This document shows positions 4,485-12,074 of a stretch of DNA of 20,000 nt, in pieces (position 1 is the first letter of the stretch; every line of letters begins with the position of its first letter). This stretch comes from an uncultured virus (IMG/VR IMGVR_UViG_3300021960_000064) (lineage: Duplodnaviria; Heunggongvirae; Uroviricota; Caudoviricetes). The translations under genes were made by a program, and so were the position numbers. The stretch lies in the IMG/VR virus record IMGVR_UViG_3300021960_000064; one strand, 5' to 3'. The notes under the pieces are model-generated. The model saw only the letters and a list, made by a program, of their open reading frames with translations. It searched no databases and was not told the origin of the DNA.

Positions 4485-4622
4485 TTACTTTTCCCTGGCT
4501 TTCTTTTTAATTTCACGTTCGTTCATCAAAAGTCTGAGGTCATGCCACCTGTAAAACTGTTTATTAACATCATCCCAAAACCATCCTTTAAAATCTTGTT
4601 GTTTTGTCATTGGATCAGTCAT
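4485..4622 (-). CDS. Small hypothetical protein, 45 aa (MTDPMTKQQDFKGWFWDDVNKQFYRWHDLRLLMNEREIKKKAREK); alternative start at 4610
   Basis: Translated by hand; below the ORF-track cutoff. It fills the gap exactly: ATG overlaps the upstream gene end, and TAA (4485-4487) abuts the next ATG (4482-4484). Confidence 0.65.
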   Translation of the reverse strand: MTDPMTKQQDFKGWFWDDVNKQFYRWHDLRLLMNEREIKKKAREK

Positions 4623-5091
4623 TGTTACTATTATTGTATATCAAACTTACCCAATTAAGAAAGGTTTTTTGATCTTTATTGTGTTTCATATAGTTTACCC
4701 TTTTACAAACGAGTTGTATATTGCTTATAACGTATTGACCTTCTGGGTCTATACGGTCTATTGATATGTTTGTCTCTCCTATTTCAGCGTGTGTTCTTAC
4801 ATGCGTCATTTCTACTCCTGAAAGAGCACATTTACCTTCTTGATTGAGATACAGTTGATATATTTCTTTTTTTCCTATGTCCCACTTATGTCCTTGTTTT
4901 TTACGACTGTATCGTAGTTGTACTACTAAGTTACGAATATAACTTTTAGGACTGCGATTCACTCGATGTACCGCTTGAGCTGTTTTACATTTTAAACATT
5001 GACGACGTTTGTGTTTTTGATCAAAAAATATAAAAAGTTTGACTTTTTTACAATCAACACAACGGTGATTAATTTTGTTGAGTTGTAACAC
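4615..5091 (-). CDS. HNH / endonuclease VII-like (His-Me finger) protein with N-terminal zinc ribbon, 158 aa
   Basis: CVDC...CLKC at the N-terminus; GKCALSG...SIDRIDPEGQYVISNIQLVCKRVNYMK matches the beta-beta-alpha-metal pattern; very basic. GTG start is uncertain. Confidence 0.65.
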   Translation of the reverse strand: MLQLNKINHRCVDCKKVKLFIFFDQKHKRRQCLKCKTAQAVHRVNRSPKSYIRNLVVQLRYSRKKQGHKWDIGKKEIYQLYLNQEGKCALSGVEMTHVRTHAEIGETNISIDRIDPEGQYVISNIQLVCKRVNYMKHNKDQKTFLNWVSLIYNNSNND

Positions 5092-5392: not shown

Positions 5393-7260
5393 CTACGTCC
5401 ATCAGGTTGTACATTAAGTCTTGTAGCTCCTAAACGCCACCCAACATTATCATTACCAGAACTACCAGCGTCGTCATCAGATTCAAGTCTAAATGTTATT
5501 TGTCTAGCTCTAGCTCGTATATCTGCTTTTGAAGTATCTGCAGCAATTTGACTTGTACTAGCTGTAGTTAATGTATCTCCTGGATAATCTCTAGTTTTTA
5601 ATACCAGATTAACTTTACCTGAACTGCTGTTGCTCAAGAATTTAATATCTGGAATAATTCTGTTAATAAAAGCAAAATTTTCACCATCATCTATATCAAC
5701 ATCACTACTTTCTATAAACACATTTGTCATAGGACTGCCGTCATTATCATAACCAAACTCTTGTTCATACAAGTAACTACCTGTCGTAGCTCTAGGATAA
5801 TTTTCTACACCAGAATCTAACCATGCTGTTCTATTTAACTGACCTATAGTCCAGACTTTTTCTGCGTAATTGTAAATAACATAACGATCAATATCATCAG
5901 AACTAGCGGAAGGGTAAAACCAACCTACTTCATTAAATTCACTATTATTGAAAGCAAACACTTTAAAAGCCTGACCTGGATTAAAGTCATCAAATACATA
6001 ACTCAAGACACTACAAGGTATTTTTTGCACTGATCCGTTATATACATAAAAACTATCGTAACCCATCCAGTAAACTCCACTAGAACTGCTAATAGCTCCC
6101 TTAGGACTTACAAGACCACTACTGTCATTAATTAAATTTAAACCGAATGTAAACGGTGGTCCAATAAACTGCATAGAGTATAAAGCTGTATCAGTCCAGA
6201 TCAATACTTCTTGTCTAGCTTTTACACCTCCGATAATTTGACTACCTTCAGAAAGTCTTAAACTACCTGCTGTGTTTGTATTACTGGGATTAAAGTCAAG
6301 TGGATTTTCTTGATCACTAAAAGCTATGAGCATAGGATCAATAACTCCTGTTCTAGAACTACCTGATATAGCATCAGCTCCTAAAACTATAACATGTCTA
6401 TCGGTTTCGCTAACAAGAACTTGTAGCCCTAGTGTAGGAACTAAATCTGCTCCGCTTTGTGTGGCTAAGTTATAAGCTCTTGTTGTCACACCGTTAGTCG
6501 CGTCCCAATAATATACTCCTCCGCCACGTGGATTTATAAGTAAGTCCTCACCGAAATTATCGTGTGACCAAAGTCTTAACTGATTACCTAAAGTTAAAGC
6601 AGTTGTGCTGCCCCATGTACTGTCTCCCCAAAGCCCTACACCCCAACCTGTAGAAGTAACAAAAATATCTAATCCTATGGTAACTTGATAAGCCCCTACT
6701 GTAGATCCACCACCGTTTCCGCTGTCACCTGCTGCTGCTAAAACTGTAGCTCCACTTGTATCTTTAGCTTCTATCGTATAGGAGTTAGCATTTACAATCG
6801 TGGCTATTTCATATTCTTGATTTAACACAGCAGCAACAATATTTCCACCTAGACTAACTGCTCCACTATAGGTAACAAAGTCACCAACTACTGCTCCGTG
6901 TGCTGTATCACTAACTGTAATTGTAGCATCTCCGTTGCCTACTTTAGCAAAAGTAACATCCCCAGCACTAGTGGTAGATCTTAAAGGAGTTATATCGTTA
7001 AAAGTTGAACCTTCTTCTATGTAGTATTTTTTGTTTGTGCCTAACCCTAAAAGTTTTGTGCCTGCTAAAGTAAGCCAACCGTGTAAAGCTCTACATGTAC
7101 CTAAAAACGTAGTGAGGTTATCTTTACGCCAACCACCTATTTTTTGTGGTCTGCCTGCTTTGAACCTAACTAAGTTAGCATCAAACCAACCGCCCTCATT
7201 ATCGTAATCGGTACCTTCTCTAGATACTCCTGGACGAAAAACAAATTTGTTAAGTGGCAT
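5389..7260 (-). CDS. Tail nozzle / tail tubular protein B-like (P22 gp10-type beta-propeller), about 623 aa
   Basis: MPLNKFVFRPG start (ATG 7258-7260 preferred over 7272); WSHDNFGEDLL, FSDQENP, EVGWFYPS, WRLG...PDGRR motifs; size and position before the ejection genes fit a podovirus nozzle. Confidence 0.75.
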   Translation of the reverse strand: MPLNKFVFRPGVSREGTDYDNEGGWFDANLVRFKAGRPQKIGGWRKDNLTTFLGTCRALHGWLTLAGTKLLGLGTNKKYYIEEGSTFNDITPLRSTTSAGDVTFAKVGNGDATITVSDTAHGAVVGDFVTYSGAVSLGGNIVAAVLNQEYEIATIVNANSYTIEAKDTSGATVLAAAGDSGNGGGSTVGAYQVTIGLDIFVTSTGWGVGLWGDSTWGSTTALTLGNQLRLWSHDNFGEDLLINPRGGGVYYWDATNGVTTRAYNLATQSGADLVPTLGLQVLVSETDRHVIVLGADAISGSSRTGVIDPMLIAFSDQENPLDFNPSNTNTAGSLRLSEGSQIIGGVKARQEVLIWTDTALYSMQFIGPPFTFGLNLINDSSGLVSPKGAISSSSGVYWMGYDSFYVYNGSVQKIPCSVLSYVFDDFNPGQAFKVFAFNNSEFNEVGWFYPSASSDDIDRYVIYNYAEKVWTIGQLNRTAWLDSGVENYPRATTGSYLYEQEFGYDNDGSPMTNVFIESSDVDIDDGENFAFINRIIPDIKFLSNSSSGKVNLVLKTRDYPGDTLTTASTSQIAADTSKADIRARARQITFRLESDDDAGSSGNDNVGWRLGATRLNVQPDGRR

Positions 7261-7690
7261 TTTGACCCTCAAACATATCTGATTCTGCTTCTCTTCTTCT
7301 TACTAAACCTTCTAAAATTTTTCCACCTGCTTTGTTCCAACGTTTCATTTGAGCTGGAACTTCATCATATTTTCCTTCATTTAAAATTCGTAGCATACTA
7401 GATTTTTTTAAATTGTTTGGTCCTAAATTGTAAACCCAAGAAACTAAAGCATCAAATTGACATTGATTTATAGGTACAGTTACTAAAGAGTTGATATAAT
7501 GTTCGTATTCCTCTTCAAGTTCTCGCCATAACATAAATTCTGCTTTTTCTTCTGACCACTTGTCACCTTCTTGTACGTCCTTAGTATGACCATAACCTAT
7601 AGTCCATACACCTGCGGCACATTGATATGCTTCAAGTTCACAACCTTCGAAAGATTTTATGAGTTCATACCCAGCGTCTGAAATATGCAT
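7250..7690 (-). CDS. Endolysin, GH24 (T4-like) lysozyme, 146 aa
   Basis: IKSFEG-x-AYQCAAGVWTIGYGHT and FDALVSWVYNLG...GLVRRREAE motifs. True start is likely ATG 7688-7690 (TAATG overlap with upstream stop), not 7846. Confidence 0.93.
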   Translation of the reverse strand: MHISDAGYELIKSFEGCELEAYQCAAGVWTIGYGHTKDVQEGDKWSEEKAEFMLWRELEEEYEHYINSLVTVPINQCQFDALVSWVYNLGPNNLKKSSMLRILNEGKYDEVPAQMKRWNKAGGKILEGLVRRREAESDMFEGQNAT

Positions 7691-7905
7691 TAAATTGCTA
7701 CTATTCCTGTCAAAGATGCCAGCAAGAGTGTCGCCATAAAACCCAAAGTTCCAAACATTGCCATCTTTAATGTTCCGTTTAGATCGTTCATTTCTTTTTT
7801 TATATCTGCTGTTTCTGCAAAAATAGTTTTCCATCTTTCCTCGCATTTTGCTTCATGTGCTCGTAAATCTGACGCTACATCATGTGCTGTTTTTCTATTC
7901 GCCAT
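7690..7905 (-). CDS. Small coiled-coil protein with C-terminal TM helix (XhlA/holin-associated type), 71 aa
   Basis: MANRKTAHDVASDLRAHEAKCEERWKTIF, coiled coil, then a hydrophobic C-terminus; lies between the holin-like gene and the lysozyme. ATG 7903-7905 preferred over 7932. Confidence 0.6.
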   Translation of the reverse strand: MANRKTAHDVASDLRAHEAKCEERWKTIFAETADIKKEMNDLNGTLKMAMFGTLGFMATLLLASLTGIVAI

Positions 7906-8380
7906 CTTTATCAGGAGTATTAGAAGCACCAAAATAGAAAGAAATTACAGCACTTGCTAGACCTCCTAAATAACCTAGCACTAAGTTAATTAATGCTTCG
8001 CTGTTTTGCTCTGGTGGTTGTAGTGTCACTAAAAATATGTAGCCCATAAACCCACCTACAACAACTGTACCCATAATTCTAGCTGTCCAGTCTTTACTAA
8101 ACTTGCCTCTAGCGTCAGCTTTATCTTGAACTTCTAGTTTAAATACATCTACTTCTAATTCTTTCATGTGTAACTCAAAACTTTGTTCTGCTTTTTTAAG
8201 CTCAAGCATTTGTTCAGGAGTAGCTGATTGAATAGCTTTATTAATAGATTTAGGATCTGATTGACAACCTAACACACCTGCGATAACCGATGCTGCTTGA
8301 CCACCTAACGGACCACCTAAAGCTGAACCGAGTGTTGGGGCTAAAGCTCCAACCATATTTTTTATTAAATCAAACTTCAT
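7895..8380 (-). CDS. Putative holin, 161 aa
   Basis: N-terminal glycine zipper (APTLGSALGGPLGG), two C-terminal TM helices ending SFYFGAS; adjacent to the lysozyme. Confidence 0.6.
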   Translation of the reverse strand: MKFDLIKNMVGALAPTLGSALGGPLGGQAASVIAGVLGCQSDPKSINKAIQSATPEQMLELKKAEQSFELHMKELEVDVFKLEVQDKADARGKFSKDWTARIMGTVVVGGFMGYIFLVTLQPPEQNSEALINLVLGYLGGLASAVISFYFGASNTPDKDGE

Positions 8381-8381
8381 A

Positions 8382-8723
8382 TTACCCCGCTAGTGGATTA
8401 CCACTTTCTAGTTTAGATATCTCTTTATCAAGACTAATTAAATCGGCTTTAATTGTAGCGATATCTGTTTTAATTTCTGTAACATCTGGTATGTTTAAAT
8501 TGTCAATTTCTTTTTCTAAAAATTGAACAGCTGTTTCAATCTTACCAAACCTTTCTTCTATAACTTTTTGTGCTTGTTCAGTATCGCCTATACCACCAAT
8601 CTTAGCTTCAAGGTTATCTATTCTATTAACATAAGTAGCACCAGTATAGCCAAAACCAGCGAGGGTTGTTACAATACCAGCTAAAGCGATTACTTGTGTT
8701 GTTTTATTTTCAAACCAATTCAT
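8382..8723 (-). CDS. Membrane-anchored coiled-coil protein, 113 aa, ending NPLAG
   Basis: AGGAG RBS overlapping the upstream TAG; N-terminal hydrophobic segment followed by heptad repeats (IKTDIATIKADLISLDKEISKL). Confidence 0.7.
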   Translation of the reverse strand: MNWFENKTTQVIALAGIVTTLAGFGYTGATYVNRIDNLEAKIGGIGDTEQAQKVIEERFGKIETAVQFLEKEIDNLNIPDVTEIKTDIATIKADLISLDKEISKLESGNPLAG

Positions 8724-8731
8724 ACATTCTC

Positions 8732-10882
8732 CTATAAATTAGGTTGCATTTTTTTCAATTTAGATAAAGTATCTATACTTTGACTTGCTAAACCGTAGAA
8801 TGCTTGAGTATTATCATTTAATATTTTAGTATATATTACACGTTCTGAATACCATTTTTCTTGATCTGGTAGAGAAACTGTTTGGTATTGATTAAAGTCA
8901 GGAACATAGCCTATTAAAGCTATTAGTTTAGATTCATCTCCGTACTCTCCTGTATCTTGTTGTTTTTGTTCTATTTCTTCTTGCTGTGCTTCTATATTTG
9001 CAGCAATAATTTTATCTGCTATTTGATCTGCTTCCGAAGTTGTTGATACATCTGCTACAGCAGTAACGATTTCATTTTGAACATTTTGTACTTGTATATC
9101 AGCAACAAGTACTTCTGCTGTTGTTTCTACATCGGTGTCTATATTTGAAATACTTGTAGATGAGGATACTGTATCAGTTACACTCATAGTTAATGTTTGA
9201 TTTGTTTGAGCTGAGGAAGAAGCAAATTGATCTGACATACTTGGCGAACTACTCGTACTTATTCCTGTGTTAGAAGAAGAACTTACTGAGTTACCTGCAG
9301 CAACACTATTGCCTGTAGCGTGAACAGAATTACCAGAGTTAGTACCACTAACACTTTGATTTGCGGTTATTATTGTAGAAGCAACCACACGTAAAGCAGT
9401 TGCTTTACTAATAGAGCTTTCTCCTTTTATATTTTCTCTTTCAGTTATTTGAAATTCTTCTTGAAACTTTTCTTCTGTTACTTCTTCTCTTTCTATACGT
9501 TCTTCTTCTACTTCAGCCTCAGCCATGCGTTCTTCTATGGCTTCAAAGACTTCCTCAACAGCTTCCTCTTCAAATATTTCTTCTATAAACTCTTCTTCTG
9601 GATCATCAAGATCTGCAAGTTCATCTTCCATCCTTGTCTCTTCCTCAAACCATTCTTCCAGTTCTTCAATAGTTTCTAATTCTATAAACGTGTTTGGTTC
9701 TGCGTAATCTTCTACTAAAAATGTTTCTTGAAAGACAAACTCATCAATCAATAACTCTTCTATCGGCATAAAAATTTCTTCTTCATGCATAGGTAAGTCA
9801 TGCGTCGGTTCAAAAGGCTCGTAATATTCTTCTTGAGAAAATACCTGTTCAAAAATTATTTCTTCTTCAAAAATAAACTCTGGCTCTTCAAACCTTTGCT
9901 CTTCAAATTCAAATACAAATTCTTCAAACATTGGTTCTTCTTCGTACCCAAATTGTTCTTCTTCCTCGTAACCATAATCAAACTGTTCTTCTTCTTGAAA
10001 ATAACCTATATCTTGTTCTTGTCTGTACCCTTGACAAAATGGTCCGTATTGTGGATCTAAGTCACATTGTTGATCATCATATGCTTCCCAGTACAAAGGA
10101 CAGGACTCACTATAAAGAGAGCTTATATTACATTGTTGTGTTAATAAAGCACTTGAATAACCACTACAACTTGAATTATTTAAAGGGTTGCTACAGTCAA
10201 TACCATTACCGCTCCCAGTACCATACAAAGAACCACCATTTTCTAAGTTTTGATTTTTGTCAGTACTGTTCCAGTTTGTATTTACACAGCTACTAGAGTT
10301 AGTTGTGCCTGTGTTACATTCATCGTGATATAAGTATGTATAAACTTCAGAGCTATCATTACCTATTTCACCAATAAAAACATCGTGATTAATAATATTT
10401 AATGCACCGTATCTATACTCAAAGGTATCGTTAGTCCACAGTATGACTTCAAAACTATTGTCAGACGCACGATTGTATTCCCGCATATTGTACCAACCAA
10501 ACACAGTTTTGTCACTAAAACTCTTAGCTAACATACTTGAACCATTATCTCTTATAAGGTCAGTCCAAAAAGGTAGTAAGGTGTAAGTGTATTGATTAGC
10601 TAAAGGATCAGGTGTATAATCATTACAAAATGCTCCAGAAGTTTTAAAATGAAGACAACCGTTCGTGGCTATTCTGCCTTGTGTAAAAGCCTGACCATAA
10701 AAATCAAAAGTGAAACCTAAGTTAAAAGCTGCAGATACTTGATCGTCTCCTGCGTTAAGGTTAGTAGTGTTTGATTGATTAGTTAAATCTATTAAAGATT
10801 GATTACTTTCGTATATGTACTGACTAAAAACATTTACACTAAGCAAACAAGCTACTGCGTAGCATAAAATTCTTTTTTGCAT
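8732..10882 (-). CDS. Exported protein: signal peptide, NIDO (nidogen)-like domain, Cys-rich repeats, Glu-rich and Ser-rich tracts, 716 aa
   Basis: MQKRILCYAVACLLSVNVFS signal peptide; DDQVS-x-FNLGFTFDFYG-x-IATNG-x-LLPFWTDL resembles the NIDO N-terminal pattern; three C-x8/9-C-x2-Y repeats; long EEE-rich region. Confidence 0.7.
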   Translation of the reverse strand: MQKRILCYAVACLLSVNVFSQYIYESNQSLIDLTNQSNTTNLNAGDDQVSAAFNLGFTFDFYGQAFTQGRIATNGCLHFKTSGAFCNDYTPDPLANQYTYTLLPFWTDLIRDNGSSMLAKSFSDKTVFGWYNMREYNRASDNSFEVILWTNDTFEYRYGALNIINHDVFIGEIGNDSSEVYTYLYHDECNTGTTNSSSCVNTNWNSTDKNQNLENGGSLYGTGSGNGIDCSNPLNNSSCSGYSSALLTQQCNISSLYSESCPLYWEAYDDQQCDLDPQYGPFCQGYRQEQDIGYFQEEEQFDYGYEEEEQFGYEEEPMFEEFVFEFEEQRFEEPEFIFEEEIIFEQVFSQEEYYEPFEPTHDLPMHEEEIFMPIEELLIDEFVFQETFLVEDYAEPNTFIELETIEELEEWFEEETRMEDELADLDDPEEEFIEEIFEEEAVEEVFEAIEERMAEAEVEEERIEREEVTEEKFQEEFQITERENIKGESSISKATALRVVASTIITANQSVSGTNSGNSVHATGNSVAAGNSVSSSSNTGISTSSSPSMSDQFASSSAQTNQTLTMSVTDTVSSSTSISNIDTDVETTAEVLVADIQVQNVQNEIVTAVADVSTTSEADQIADKIIAANIEAQQEEIEQKQQDTGEYGDESKLIALIGYVPDFNQYQTVSLPDQEKWYSERVIYTKILNDNTQAFYGLASQSIDTLSKLKKMQPNL
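10025..10195 (-). repeat. Three tandem 21-22 aa Cys-pair repeats (protein level)
   Basis: CSNPLNNSSCSGYSSALLTQQ / CNISSLYSESCPLYWEAYDDQQ / CDLDPQYGPFCQGY. Confidence 0.75.
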
Positions 10883-11931
10883 TGTTTGTCAGTTTTAGTT
10901 TTTCTTGTGTAAGTTTTTTTAACTAATCCTACAACATCTTTATTTATTTTAGATCTATTTGGATTAGCTTCGTGTGTACATTTAGTAATGAACTCTTTTT
11001 CAGCATCTTCTACATCAGGTCTTTTAGATTGGTTTTTAGCCCACTCTGCTGAAGCTTCTTTACCTATCTTACCTTCGTATGGACAAGGTGTGCCTGCCAT
11101 TTTCATAGCTTTGAAAACTCTTTCATCCTGACATAACAAACTAACTGAGGCTACTTTCATACCCATATCATATAAATATTTAGAAAGTTTGAGCCTTTCA
11201 CAGTTTTTATCTGTTACTGTTTTACCACCAGAAAAACCAAATACTTGACCTTGAAAAGCTCCACTTACACCAGTAGTACATAAGTCTTGTGAATAACTCA
11301 TTATAGAAGGAGCAATAGCAGAGGCTGGTGGTGCCTCACTTTTTATATTTTGATTTATGGTTTGAGTAGAGTTGGACTCGTTAATGTTTCTATTAGTGTT
11401 ATTAGACTGTGTGTTGTTATTATTGGTATTAGTATTATCAGTAGTAACATTAGAATCCGAAGTAGATTGATTGACATTAGTGTTGTTGTTAGTATTTGTA
11501 TTGTTACTAGTAGAATTACTATTGTTATTAACGTTTTGATTTACCGTTGAGTTTACAGTAGAGTTTGATGTAGAGGTTGAAGTGTTATTATTGTTGTTTG
11601 TATTAACACTTACAGAATTATTAGTATTGGTATTATTACTGGTATTAACATTTGTAGAAATGTTATTATTCGTGTTCGTGTTCGTGGAGTTATTCGTATT
11701 CGTGCTATTATTTGTGTTGGTGTTTGTGTTAACATTAGTATTGCTGTTGGTGTTGTTGTTTGTGTTGTTGTTTGTGTTGGTATTTGTAGTCACCGTAGTA
11801 TTAATAGTAGTCAAACCATTGTCTTCACAATACTGAGTACCCGAAGTACAGGTGCCTGTTTGATCACTAACAGCGTGTAGCGAAAAAAATAAAGGAGCTA
11901 CTAATAAAAACTTTTTTAAATCTATATTCAC
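10852..11931 (-). CDS. Exported protein: signal peptide, Asn/Thr low-complexity tract, Cys-rich C-terminal domain, 359 aa
   Basis: GTG start; KKFLLVAPLFFSLHAVS signal peptide; about 150 aa N/T-rich tract; C-terminal PPASAIAPS..DLC..NCERLKLSK.LYDMGMKVA..CQD.RVF.AM..AGTPCP domain that I recognise as a marine-phage family of unknown function. Confidence 0.75.
   Translation of the reverse strand: MNIDLKKFLLVAPLFFSLHAVSDQTGTCTSGTQYCEDNGLTTINTTVTTNTNTNNNTNNNTNSNTNVNTNTNTNNSTNTNNSTNTNTNNNISTNVNTSNNTNTNNSVSVNTNNNNNTSTSTSNSTVNSTVNQNVNNNSNSTSNNTNTNNNTNVNQSTSDSNVTTDNTNTNNNNTQSNNTNRNINESNSTQTINQNIKSEAPPASAIAPSIMSYSQDLCTTGVSGAFQGQVFGFSGGKTVTDKNCERLKLSKYLYDMGMKVASVSLLCQDERVFKAMKMAGTPCPYEGKIGKEASAEWAKNQSKRPDVEDAEKEFITKCTHEANPNRSKINKDVVGLVKKTYTRKTKTDKQCKKEFYATQ
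11350..11815 (-). repeat. Low-complexity Asn/Thr coding repeat (AAC/AAT/ACA/ACT-rich)
   Basis: gtgttgttgtttgtgttg-type runs on the + strand; translates to TNTNTNNNTNNNTNSNTNVN... Confidence 0.85.
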
Positions 11932-11960
11932 ATATGAATTATATCATGTGAGAATATAGA
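11921..11960. repeat. Imperfect inverted repeat (9 bp + 4 bp stem, 2-nt bulge, 12-nt loop) spanning the promoter and the GTG start
   Basis: Minus strand TCTATATTC-TC-ACAT-GATATAATTCAT-ATGT-GAATATAGA. Confidence 0.75.
11938..11946 (-). promoter_or_regulatory. Extended -10 sigma70-type promoter (TGATATAAT)
   Basis: Perfect TGnTATAAT in one of the few real intergenic gaps; predicted +1 falls at about 11931, the G of the GTG start; no SD and no consensus -35. Confidence 0.6.
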
Positions 11961-11966
11961 AAGTTA

Positions 11967-12074
11967 TTATTTTTTAAATTTAGCTGTAATTTTATTCCAA
12001 AGCTCAGGTTTGAATTTTTTTACAGACCAAGCTATAATCACTACTGCTATTGCTAATGGTATTAATATATCCAT
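11967..12074 (-). CDS. Small membrane peptide, 35 aa (MDILIPLAIAVVIIAWSVKKFKPELWNKITAKFKK)
   Basis: Translated by hand; AGGAG RBS 6 nt before the ATG, double TAA TAA stop; hydrophobic N-terminal helix plus a Lys-rich tail. Confidence 0.8.
   Translation of the reverse strand: MDILIPLAIAVVIIAWSVKKFKPELWNKITAKFKK

Follow-up and report, generated by a model that had tools for sequence, protein, structure and literature searches.

A conserved three-gene envelope cassette of aquatic phages, seen beside the lysis genes of an uncultured podovirus-like phage

Introduction

Phage-borne surface systems have a precedent in the curli type VIII secretion system (T8SS) of pelagiphages, a cassette of CsgG, CsgF, CsgA/B and FecR for which a role in aggregation or exclusion is proposed (PMC9599517, PMC7029224). 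Here we describe a cassette of three genes, called A, B and C, in a 20,000-nt stretch of DNA from an uncultured virus of the Caudoviricetes (IMG/VR record IMGVR_UViG_3300021960_000064), the whole of which is referred to as the window. Of the known systems, pelagiphage curli comes nearest to it in the way it would work, though the two have no component in common. From its sequences we tentatively read it as a mobile, late, envelope-anchored display device on the infected cell, a reading held with somewhat less than even confidence.

The likeness to pelagiphage curli lies in a multi-gene envelope module that is common to podo- and myoviruses of SAR11 and includes an exported low-complexity protein. 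Unlike in curli systems, the Pfam models of CsgG, CsgF and curlin are unmatched in A, B, C and 95 A homologues, PHROG and NCBIfam give the same result for A, B and C, the Asn/Thr tract of A has no curlin match, and structure searches with the A core brought up no match to CsgG. Curli also has neither an inner membrane (IM) coiled-coil partner nor a link to lysis genes, both of which are features of the cassette. Chaperone-usher pilus genes are likewise absent, the cassette in the window consisting of A, B and C only. In the full-text literature, with most subscription papers and supplements outside its scope, neither a description of the cassette nor virion proteomics was found (PMC11288001, PMC10504331, bioRxiv 2019.12.14.876532 included); annotation tables in such supplements may bear on its novelty.

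Two further described systems provide points of comparison. The first is the lambda Rz/Rz1 spanin pair; how spanin-less phages breach the outer membrane (OM) is presented as an open question (PMC6139136). The second is the hairpin that hides the start codon of T4 gene e, with likewise precedents in soc, 49 and I-TevI (PMC3014915).

Gene order, mobility and spread of the cassette

Scanning IMG/VR confirmed B at 262 places, A at 395 and an A alignment at 598 or more; the best 80 of each were fetched, and the fetched cassette loci are biased to close relatives. Only loci in which 3.3 kb or more follows A entered the gene-order count, for which both a match to the B tail and a C ending in NPL were needed. 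The order A-B-C held in 55/55 (21 shorter loci dropped) and 44/44 (28 dropped) of the loci found through A, and in 52/52 of those found through B (21 dropped), which agrees with the initial annotation of this DNA. Of the observations that would have refuted that annotation, neither a lack of co-occurrence nor a loss of the signal peptides among homologues was seen. The trio moves as a unit, because the neighbours of the cassette vary widely among loci while the A-B-C order stays.

In named phages, a tblastn search with the A core matched 13 records, and 10 of the 11 examined carry, besides A, a C homologue ending in NPL. Six of these ten infect SAR11, the myovirus Mosig being one of them; the other four are two Roseobacter phages, a freshwater podovirus and a uvMED autographivirus. 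The carriers of A and C span members of the Kyanoviridae and Autographiviridae and HTVC023P. The B and C of the window gave no tblastn match in 50,697 phage records, relatives being reached via A and local profiles only. A scan of genome contigs returned 6 matches, all on short metagenome-assembled genome contigs, which are probably binned phage DNA.

Several loci carry features of their own. GenBank labels of the Roseobacter phages, 'OmpA family' (CRP-810 gp53) and 'lysozyme' (CRP-810 gp51, CRP-207 gp73), were rejected, as these are A and C homologues (apparent misannotations at L086:4776-6584 and L091:1834-3873), and the start of CRP-810 gp52 seemingly lies ~225 nt upstream of the annotated one. 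Locus L238 has three additional exported genes between B and C (6266-7534) with no informative Pfam or NCBIfam match, the last of which encodes an OM-type beta-strand motif and then a coiled coil. The commonest gene directly upstream of the cassette encodes a 127-aa membrane protein (phrog_10198, 88 loci; L143:4048-4428), followed in frequency by a thermonuclease-like gene (PF00565, 83 loci; L031:3777-4205).

Export signals and the three proteins

The three linked open reading frames (ORFs) first described are confirmed, at 359, 716 and 113 aa, all on the minus strand. A signal-peptide rule (basic n-region, hydrophobic 9-mer and small-x-small site) was passed by 167/172 distinct A homologues and 135/138 B homologues, compared to 18/163 of the other complete ORFs of at least 250 aa in the same loci; the rule is blind to signal peptide versus anchor, and it also passes C, the adjoining gene product D161 and one 317-aa ORF of the window. 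The leader sequences of A and B diverge across homologues with export character retained, so the Sec-type signal peptides proposed for both are conserved in character. Both proteins carry these signal peptides together with Cys pairs, so maturation of A and B is expected to take place in the periplasm. The conserved export signals would also place the cassette proteins in the envelope and not in the virion, as first suggested.

The A protein is laid out as a signal peptide (~1-22), a Cys pair, an Asn/Thr/Ser tract (41-197; 44% Asn, 27% Thr and 13% Ser), a core (~198-310) and a basic tail; its description as an Asn/Thr-rich protein with paired cysteines is borne out, there being 8 Cys, in pairs. 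Across homologues the tract varies from nearly nil to hundreds of residues, and the core is strongly conserved and not fast-evolving. The core contains the motif PPxSAxAPS, a Cys-clamped amphipathic beta-hairpin and helices with a second Cys pair, and its model (mean predicted local distance difference test score, pLDDT, of 78) has the hairpin at residues 42-63 followed by helices. In an alignment of 95 A homologues, C41 and C67 flanking the hairpin are kept in 95/95 and the second pair, C90 and C106, in 90/95. One face of the hairpin has small residues only (Gly, Ser, Ala, Thr), and the other is hydrophobic at the tip and mixed at the base. This pattern would suit hairpins arranged as a ring that touches or enters the OM, but the hydrophobic span is short.

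The A family is large, with 1455 clusters (50% identity) at E <= 0.001, and no Pfam family was found for it; family scans of A, B, C and the bacterial and phage homologues gave no informative match. Comparing the core model to 48,161 PDB chains matched no solved structure (best Z 3.9), a Foldseek search of the core gave no match at E <= 0.001, and its sole matches in BFVD are uncharacterised phage proteins.

The B protein begins with a signal peptide (~1-20) and a NIDO-like beta head (~21-190), followed by a Cys-rich segment, an acidic stalk (291-490), a Ser/Thr tract and a conserved tail with the motif Y..WY..IY..DN. There are 10 Cys within residues 21-290, Asp and Glu make up 41% of residues 291-490, and Ser and Thr make up 43% of residues 491-590. 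Of the earlier label 'NIDO-like acidic', the acidic part stands, and NIDO is a lead and not a membership. The head resembles extracellular proteins with NIDO (PF06119) in its Atlas features, which have 0.97 similarity to clusters where 12–14% of members bear this domain; unlike them, B from the window falls under the Pfam gathering cut-off, with no match to PF06119 at E 0.01, and relatives of B carry other heads. PF06119 was weakly matched by 2/42 B homologues (best E 0.022). The head has no PDB sequence match; its pLDDT is mostly 60–90 in the 697-residue model of B, and fold searches with that whole model gave nothing, or rows filled by helices.

B homologues number 2346 at E <= 0.001, and the 138 B proteins with a tail of the window type have heads of four unrelated groups (132, 4, 1 and 1). 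The middle gene of the SAR11 phages also encodes a signal peptide and an acidic stalk, but its head differs, and its tail has a similar motif resembling FY-x2-IY-x5-DN; two of these SAR11-type B proteins weakly matched CBM_4_9 (E 0.009–0.02). When SAR11-phage B tails were compared to the window type with seven sequences, 4/7 matched at E 2e-4 to 4e-3, HTVC115P at 6e-20 and the other two more weakly; the hhalign probability for the HTVC023P tail is 35%. By sequence, homology of these tails to the window type is clear for HTVC115P alone and likely for the others. The head and stalk of B are, on these comparisons, exchangeable while its tail is kept, and the A core and C are the fixed parts. Displayed binding proteins typically swap heads on a kept tail.

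The C protein has an N-terminal hydrophobic segment (~11-29), a coiled-coil-like body and an invariant N-x-L (NPL) end, confirming the earlier description of a membrane-anchored coiled coil ending in NPLAG; its predicted topology is that of an IM anchor with a periplasmic coiled coil ending in NPL. Complex prediction with the A core, B tail and C tip scored 0.00 in two runs, which counts neither way.

Bacterial and JP1 relatives of gene A

Matches to A were found in 4/400 sampled bacterial genomes besides the centre genome and in 1/72,556 plasmid records, this being a 2.5-Mb Variovorax replicon. The bacterial A gene adjoins one for a secreted Gly/Ala/Ser-rich protein, read directly at 3/5 loci and inferred from the antisense frame at 2/5, and Agrobacterium phage JP1 has the same pair. 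Such operons lie at L261:3930-5738, L254:3965-5965, L264:4788-5902 and L265:3866-4955, and some also encode a small secreted protein. No B-tail or C match lies within 10 kb of the bacterial A loci, no pore gene was recognised near the bacterial and JP1 loci, and the operon proteins scanned belong to no Pfam or NCBIfam family. Because A accompanies a secreted low-complexity partner in bacteria and JP1, it is suggested by its gene context to export or anchor that partner; the operon is possibly a fibre or amyloid export system.

Setting of the cassette in the window

The window corresponds to the part of an uncultured podovirus-like phage genome that contains its virion and lysis genes (Table 1). 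The phage's own record, G000, measures 24.8 kb (42% complete); the 41-kb record G001 (68% complete) is identical to it in the genes common to both. The tail protein of the phage has 31–40% identity to its counterparts in DSL-LC04, CRP-901/902 and HTVC023P/027P. The cassette lies between tail-fibre genes (phrog_24898, phrog_4912) and the endolysin, as the initial annotation had it.

Table 1. Features of the cassette and the adjoining genes in the window.
Feature	Position	Strand	Description
Gene A	10852..11931	-	359 aa, GTG start; phrog_20531 (unknown function)
Gene B	8732..10882	-	716 aa; 31-nt overlap with A
Gene C	8382..8723	-	113 aa; 8 nt after B; ends NPLAG
D161	7895..8380	-	Holin-like membrane protein (inferred label), 1 nt past C; phrog_1544, unknown function
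E80	7690-7932	-	Transmembrane/coiled-coil ORF, 80 aa or shorter, between D161 and endolysin
Endolysin (lysozyme)	7250..7690	-	PF00959, E 6e-48; ATG at 7690
Peptide ORF, uncalled	11967..12074	-	35 aa, hydrophobic then basic; Shine-Dalgarno site; just upstream of promoter
Extended -10 (TGn-TATAAT), TGATATAAT	11938..11946	-	Hexamer ends 6 nt before the GTG of A
Hairpin	11922..11959	-	Loop is the -10 hexamer; 3' arm includes the start codon and first codons of A

The uncalled 35-aa peptide ORF is kept at 55–77% identity in ~30 fetched loci; tblastn of 265 fetched loci gave 36 rows at E <= 1, duplicates and the window's own locus counted. An HNH/endonuclease VII-like gene sits within the virion gene block (window 4615-5091, minus strand). 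In record G001, a gene run precedes the DNA polymerase (L252:471-3112), and we take it, by eye, to resemble a thymidylate-synthase-type DNA hypermodification set.

Part of gene A (11349-11677) occurs as identical contigs in two metatranscriptome runs of one study, contigs from which strand, start and level are unreadable. In another metatranscriptome study, relatives of gene A (85–95%) cover 28/30 bins, again as contigs only and so not as proof of expression; in RNA, 5–9% of words are present in 6 runs.

Promoter and start-codon hairpin

A perfect extended -10 precedes A, as first proposed; the further suggestion that the cassette has a promoter of its own needs correcting, as this promoter probably serves the lysis genes too. 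The motif occurs in 5 copies on both window strands, compared to 1.7 expected from 100 Markov simulations, which is weak alone; more telling is its position, the hexamer ending 6 nt ahead of the start codon. At the same spacing a -10 is found in 9/157 distinct A upstream regions versus 2/690 ATG starts of flanking genes, two sets whose start-codon rules are not fully matched. Because the hexamer ends 6 nt before the GTG, a leaderless transcript of A is predicted. From A through B, C, D161 and E80 to the endolysin the genes adjoin or overlap, and no terminator-like site was listed on the minus strand between C and the endolysin; a combined operon of cassette and lysis genes is therefore probably driven by this promoter.

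The hairpin of the window has a z of -4.0 (0/200 shuffles), and a 12–17-pair stem with the hexamer as its loop is common to the window and four related loci (z -3.7 to -7.0). In the alignment of these five related, non-independent loci, 93.8% of cells are paired, three pairs are changed on both sides and G-U wobbles occur; this level of pairing was reached in 0/500 shuffles. The stem over the start codon is thus conserved in five related loci, as is required of a T4-type translation-blocking hairpin. A similar fold is seen in L169 (z -3.3), but L175 shows no significant folding (z -0.8). The site may alternatively act as a repressor-bound DNA palindrome, but the G-U pairs favour an RNA hairpin.

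The arrangement is like that of gene e in that the stem would hide the start codon on read-through RNA while a promoter in the 5' part yields stem-free RNA; it is unlike gene e in that a sigma-70-type extended -10 lies in the loop, the predicted RNA is leaderless and the upstream genes are virion, not early, genes. It further differs in being limited to a small subgroup. In most relatives this promoter is absent, the cassette simply following the upstream gene, and a scan of the whole of IMG/VR for the promoter-start motif gave nothing beyond four loci already known.

Discussion

The reading of the cassette as a display device draws on the fixed gene order with changing neighbours, the export signals, the exchangeable head and the hairpin and Cys pattern of A. 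In the proposed mechanism, the cassette would be made late in infection together with the lysis genes. In the subgroup with the hairpin, RNA reading through from the virion genes would have the A start codon hidden, and the promoter in the loop would give a leaderless, translatable RNA, thereby uncoupling the cassette from virion-gene expression. C would act as an IM strut with its NPL tip docking on an A oligomer, in which disulfide-clamped hairpins pack into a ring gripping or piercing the OM. B would be held by its conserved tail, showing its head at the cell surface on a long acidic tether; the head would be NIDO-like here and carbohydrate-binding-like in SAR11 phages. The infected cell might then stick to neighbours or particles, or have its surface masked, shortly before lysis. 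In a more far-reaching version, which we regard as doubtful, A would be a ring of disulfide-clamped hairpins that serves bacteria, together with a secreted, fibre-like Gly/Ala/Ser-rich protein, as pore or anchor in an export-and-display system not described so far. Aquatic phages would have added C as strut and B as swappable adhesin to this system, gluing infected SAR11 and other plankton cells to new hosts before lysis, with a hairpin-gated leaderless promoter in some phages.

Several observations weigh against a display device. The cassette includes no gene for an OM barrel, the hydrophobic face of the A hairpin is just ~5–6 residues, perhaps too short for a bilayer, and some members of the family have Arg or Lys at two positions of the hairpin base. 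The Cys-rich head of B would need a wide pore. A hydrophobic C-terminal tail, which would tie A to the IM, is present in 20/100 A representatives of at least 165 aa. The phage RSP15 has A alone, and in the Roseobacter phages CRP-810 and CRP-207 the middle gene encodes an unrelated-looking secreted protein. A sigma-70-type promoter is not by itself late. Lastly, among the 91 non-identical loci with enough flank, an endolysin lies within 3–4 genes of the cassette in 52, which fits a role in lysis equally well.

Such a role is the first alternative, and we consider it possible if rather doubtful: A, B and C would form a periplasmic lysis accessory, an inter-membrane scaffold timing or easing lysis alongside the spanins. 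With similar doubt, its means would be either the holding or localising of holin and endolysin action or a weakening of the OM through the acidic stalk and the hairpin. In the window, the holin-like gene and the endolysin form one contiguous run with the cassette, a hairpin hiding the start codon is the control that T4 uses for its lysozyme, and the hydrophobic tail of some A proteins would keep them periplasmic. However, 39/91 loci lack an endolysin within 3–4 genes, the cassettes of Mosig, HTVC202P and Baldr adjoin primase or terminase genes, exchangeable binding-type heads are unneeded for lysis, and bacterial A homologues are without lysis genes in the 10-kb stretches examined.

Superinfection exclusion or a lysis-inhibition sensor is unlikely. 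In the periplasm, the B head and polyanionic stalk would trap or sense arriving tails, ejection proteins or DNA, and either signal via A and C or block entry, which would agree with the envelope location, the variable head, a host-type promoter that could fire early and the carriage of the cassette by competing phages of the same host. The high conservation of the A core, which is not fast-evolving, argues against this, as does the position of the cassette inside late transcription units lacking this promoter in most loci; known exclusion proteins, moreover, are mostly single small membrane proteins or lipoproteins.

Less likely still is a periplasmic stockpile that acts after lysis or an adhesive coat on released virions: the late position adjoining tail-fibre genes, the binding-type heads and the disulfide-type Cys pairs would fit, but C is membrane-anchored with an invariant tip, and the cassette is shared by phages that differ in family, genome size and virion.

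A non-canonical spanin replacement with C as an i-spanin-like rod, one of the roles first suggested, can be set aside as very improbable: the topology of C is i-spanin-like and neither the window nor the records G000 and G001 (42% and 68% complete) yielded a spanin, but Rz/Rz1-like genes coexist with intact cassettes in 41/159 loci, so the cassette is no stand-in for spanins, and it has no lipoprotein, C matched no spanin PHROG at E 0.01, and the gene that alternates with spanins is D161.

The likeness of C to the lambda pair (PMC6139136) lies in an N-terminal membrane segment and a periplasmic coiled coil, often encoded in the lysis block; unlike Rz/Rz1, C has no lipoprotein partner and instead two Sec-type exported ones. 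In mature A and B there is no conserved +1 Cys after the small-x-small sites, as an o-spanin lipobox would have, and scanning G000 for lipoboxes turned up no ORF for a small lipoprotein. Both Rz-like and Rz1-like genes are found in the flanks of 22/91 loci (phrog_739, 812, 1152, 456). Among the 159 fetched cassette loci, which are related and non-independent, at least one spanin is present in 41, D161 in 52, both in 0 and neither in 66. D161 consists of an N-terminal Gly-rich amphipathic part and C-terminal hydrophobic segments, varies among loci and lies outside the conserved cassette; together with the endolysin it is probably on the cassette transcript. It is a candidate holin that may possibly also take part in the OM step, and its strict alternation with spanins makes it a candidate for breach of the OM in phages that lack them.

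Aquatic phages of many unrelated kinds carry the cassette, among them cultured viruses that infect the most abundant bacteria of the ocean, and the A family is directly testable as it is present in six cultured SAR11 phages. If the cassette is a lysis accessory, it would be a further, so far unrecognised component of lysis in Gram-negative hosts, besides holin, endolysin and spanin. If it does display a binding head, it would give phages of dilute seawater a curli-independent way to reach the next host or exclude competitors.

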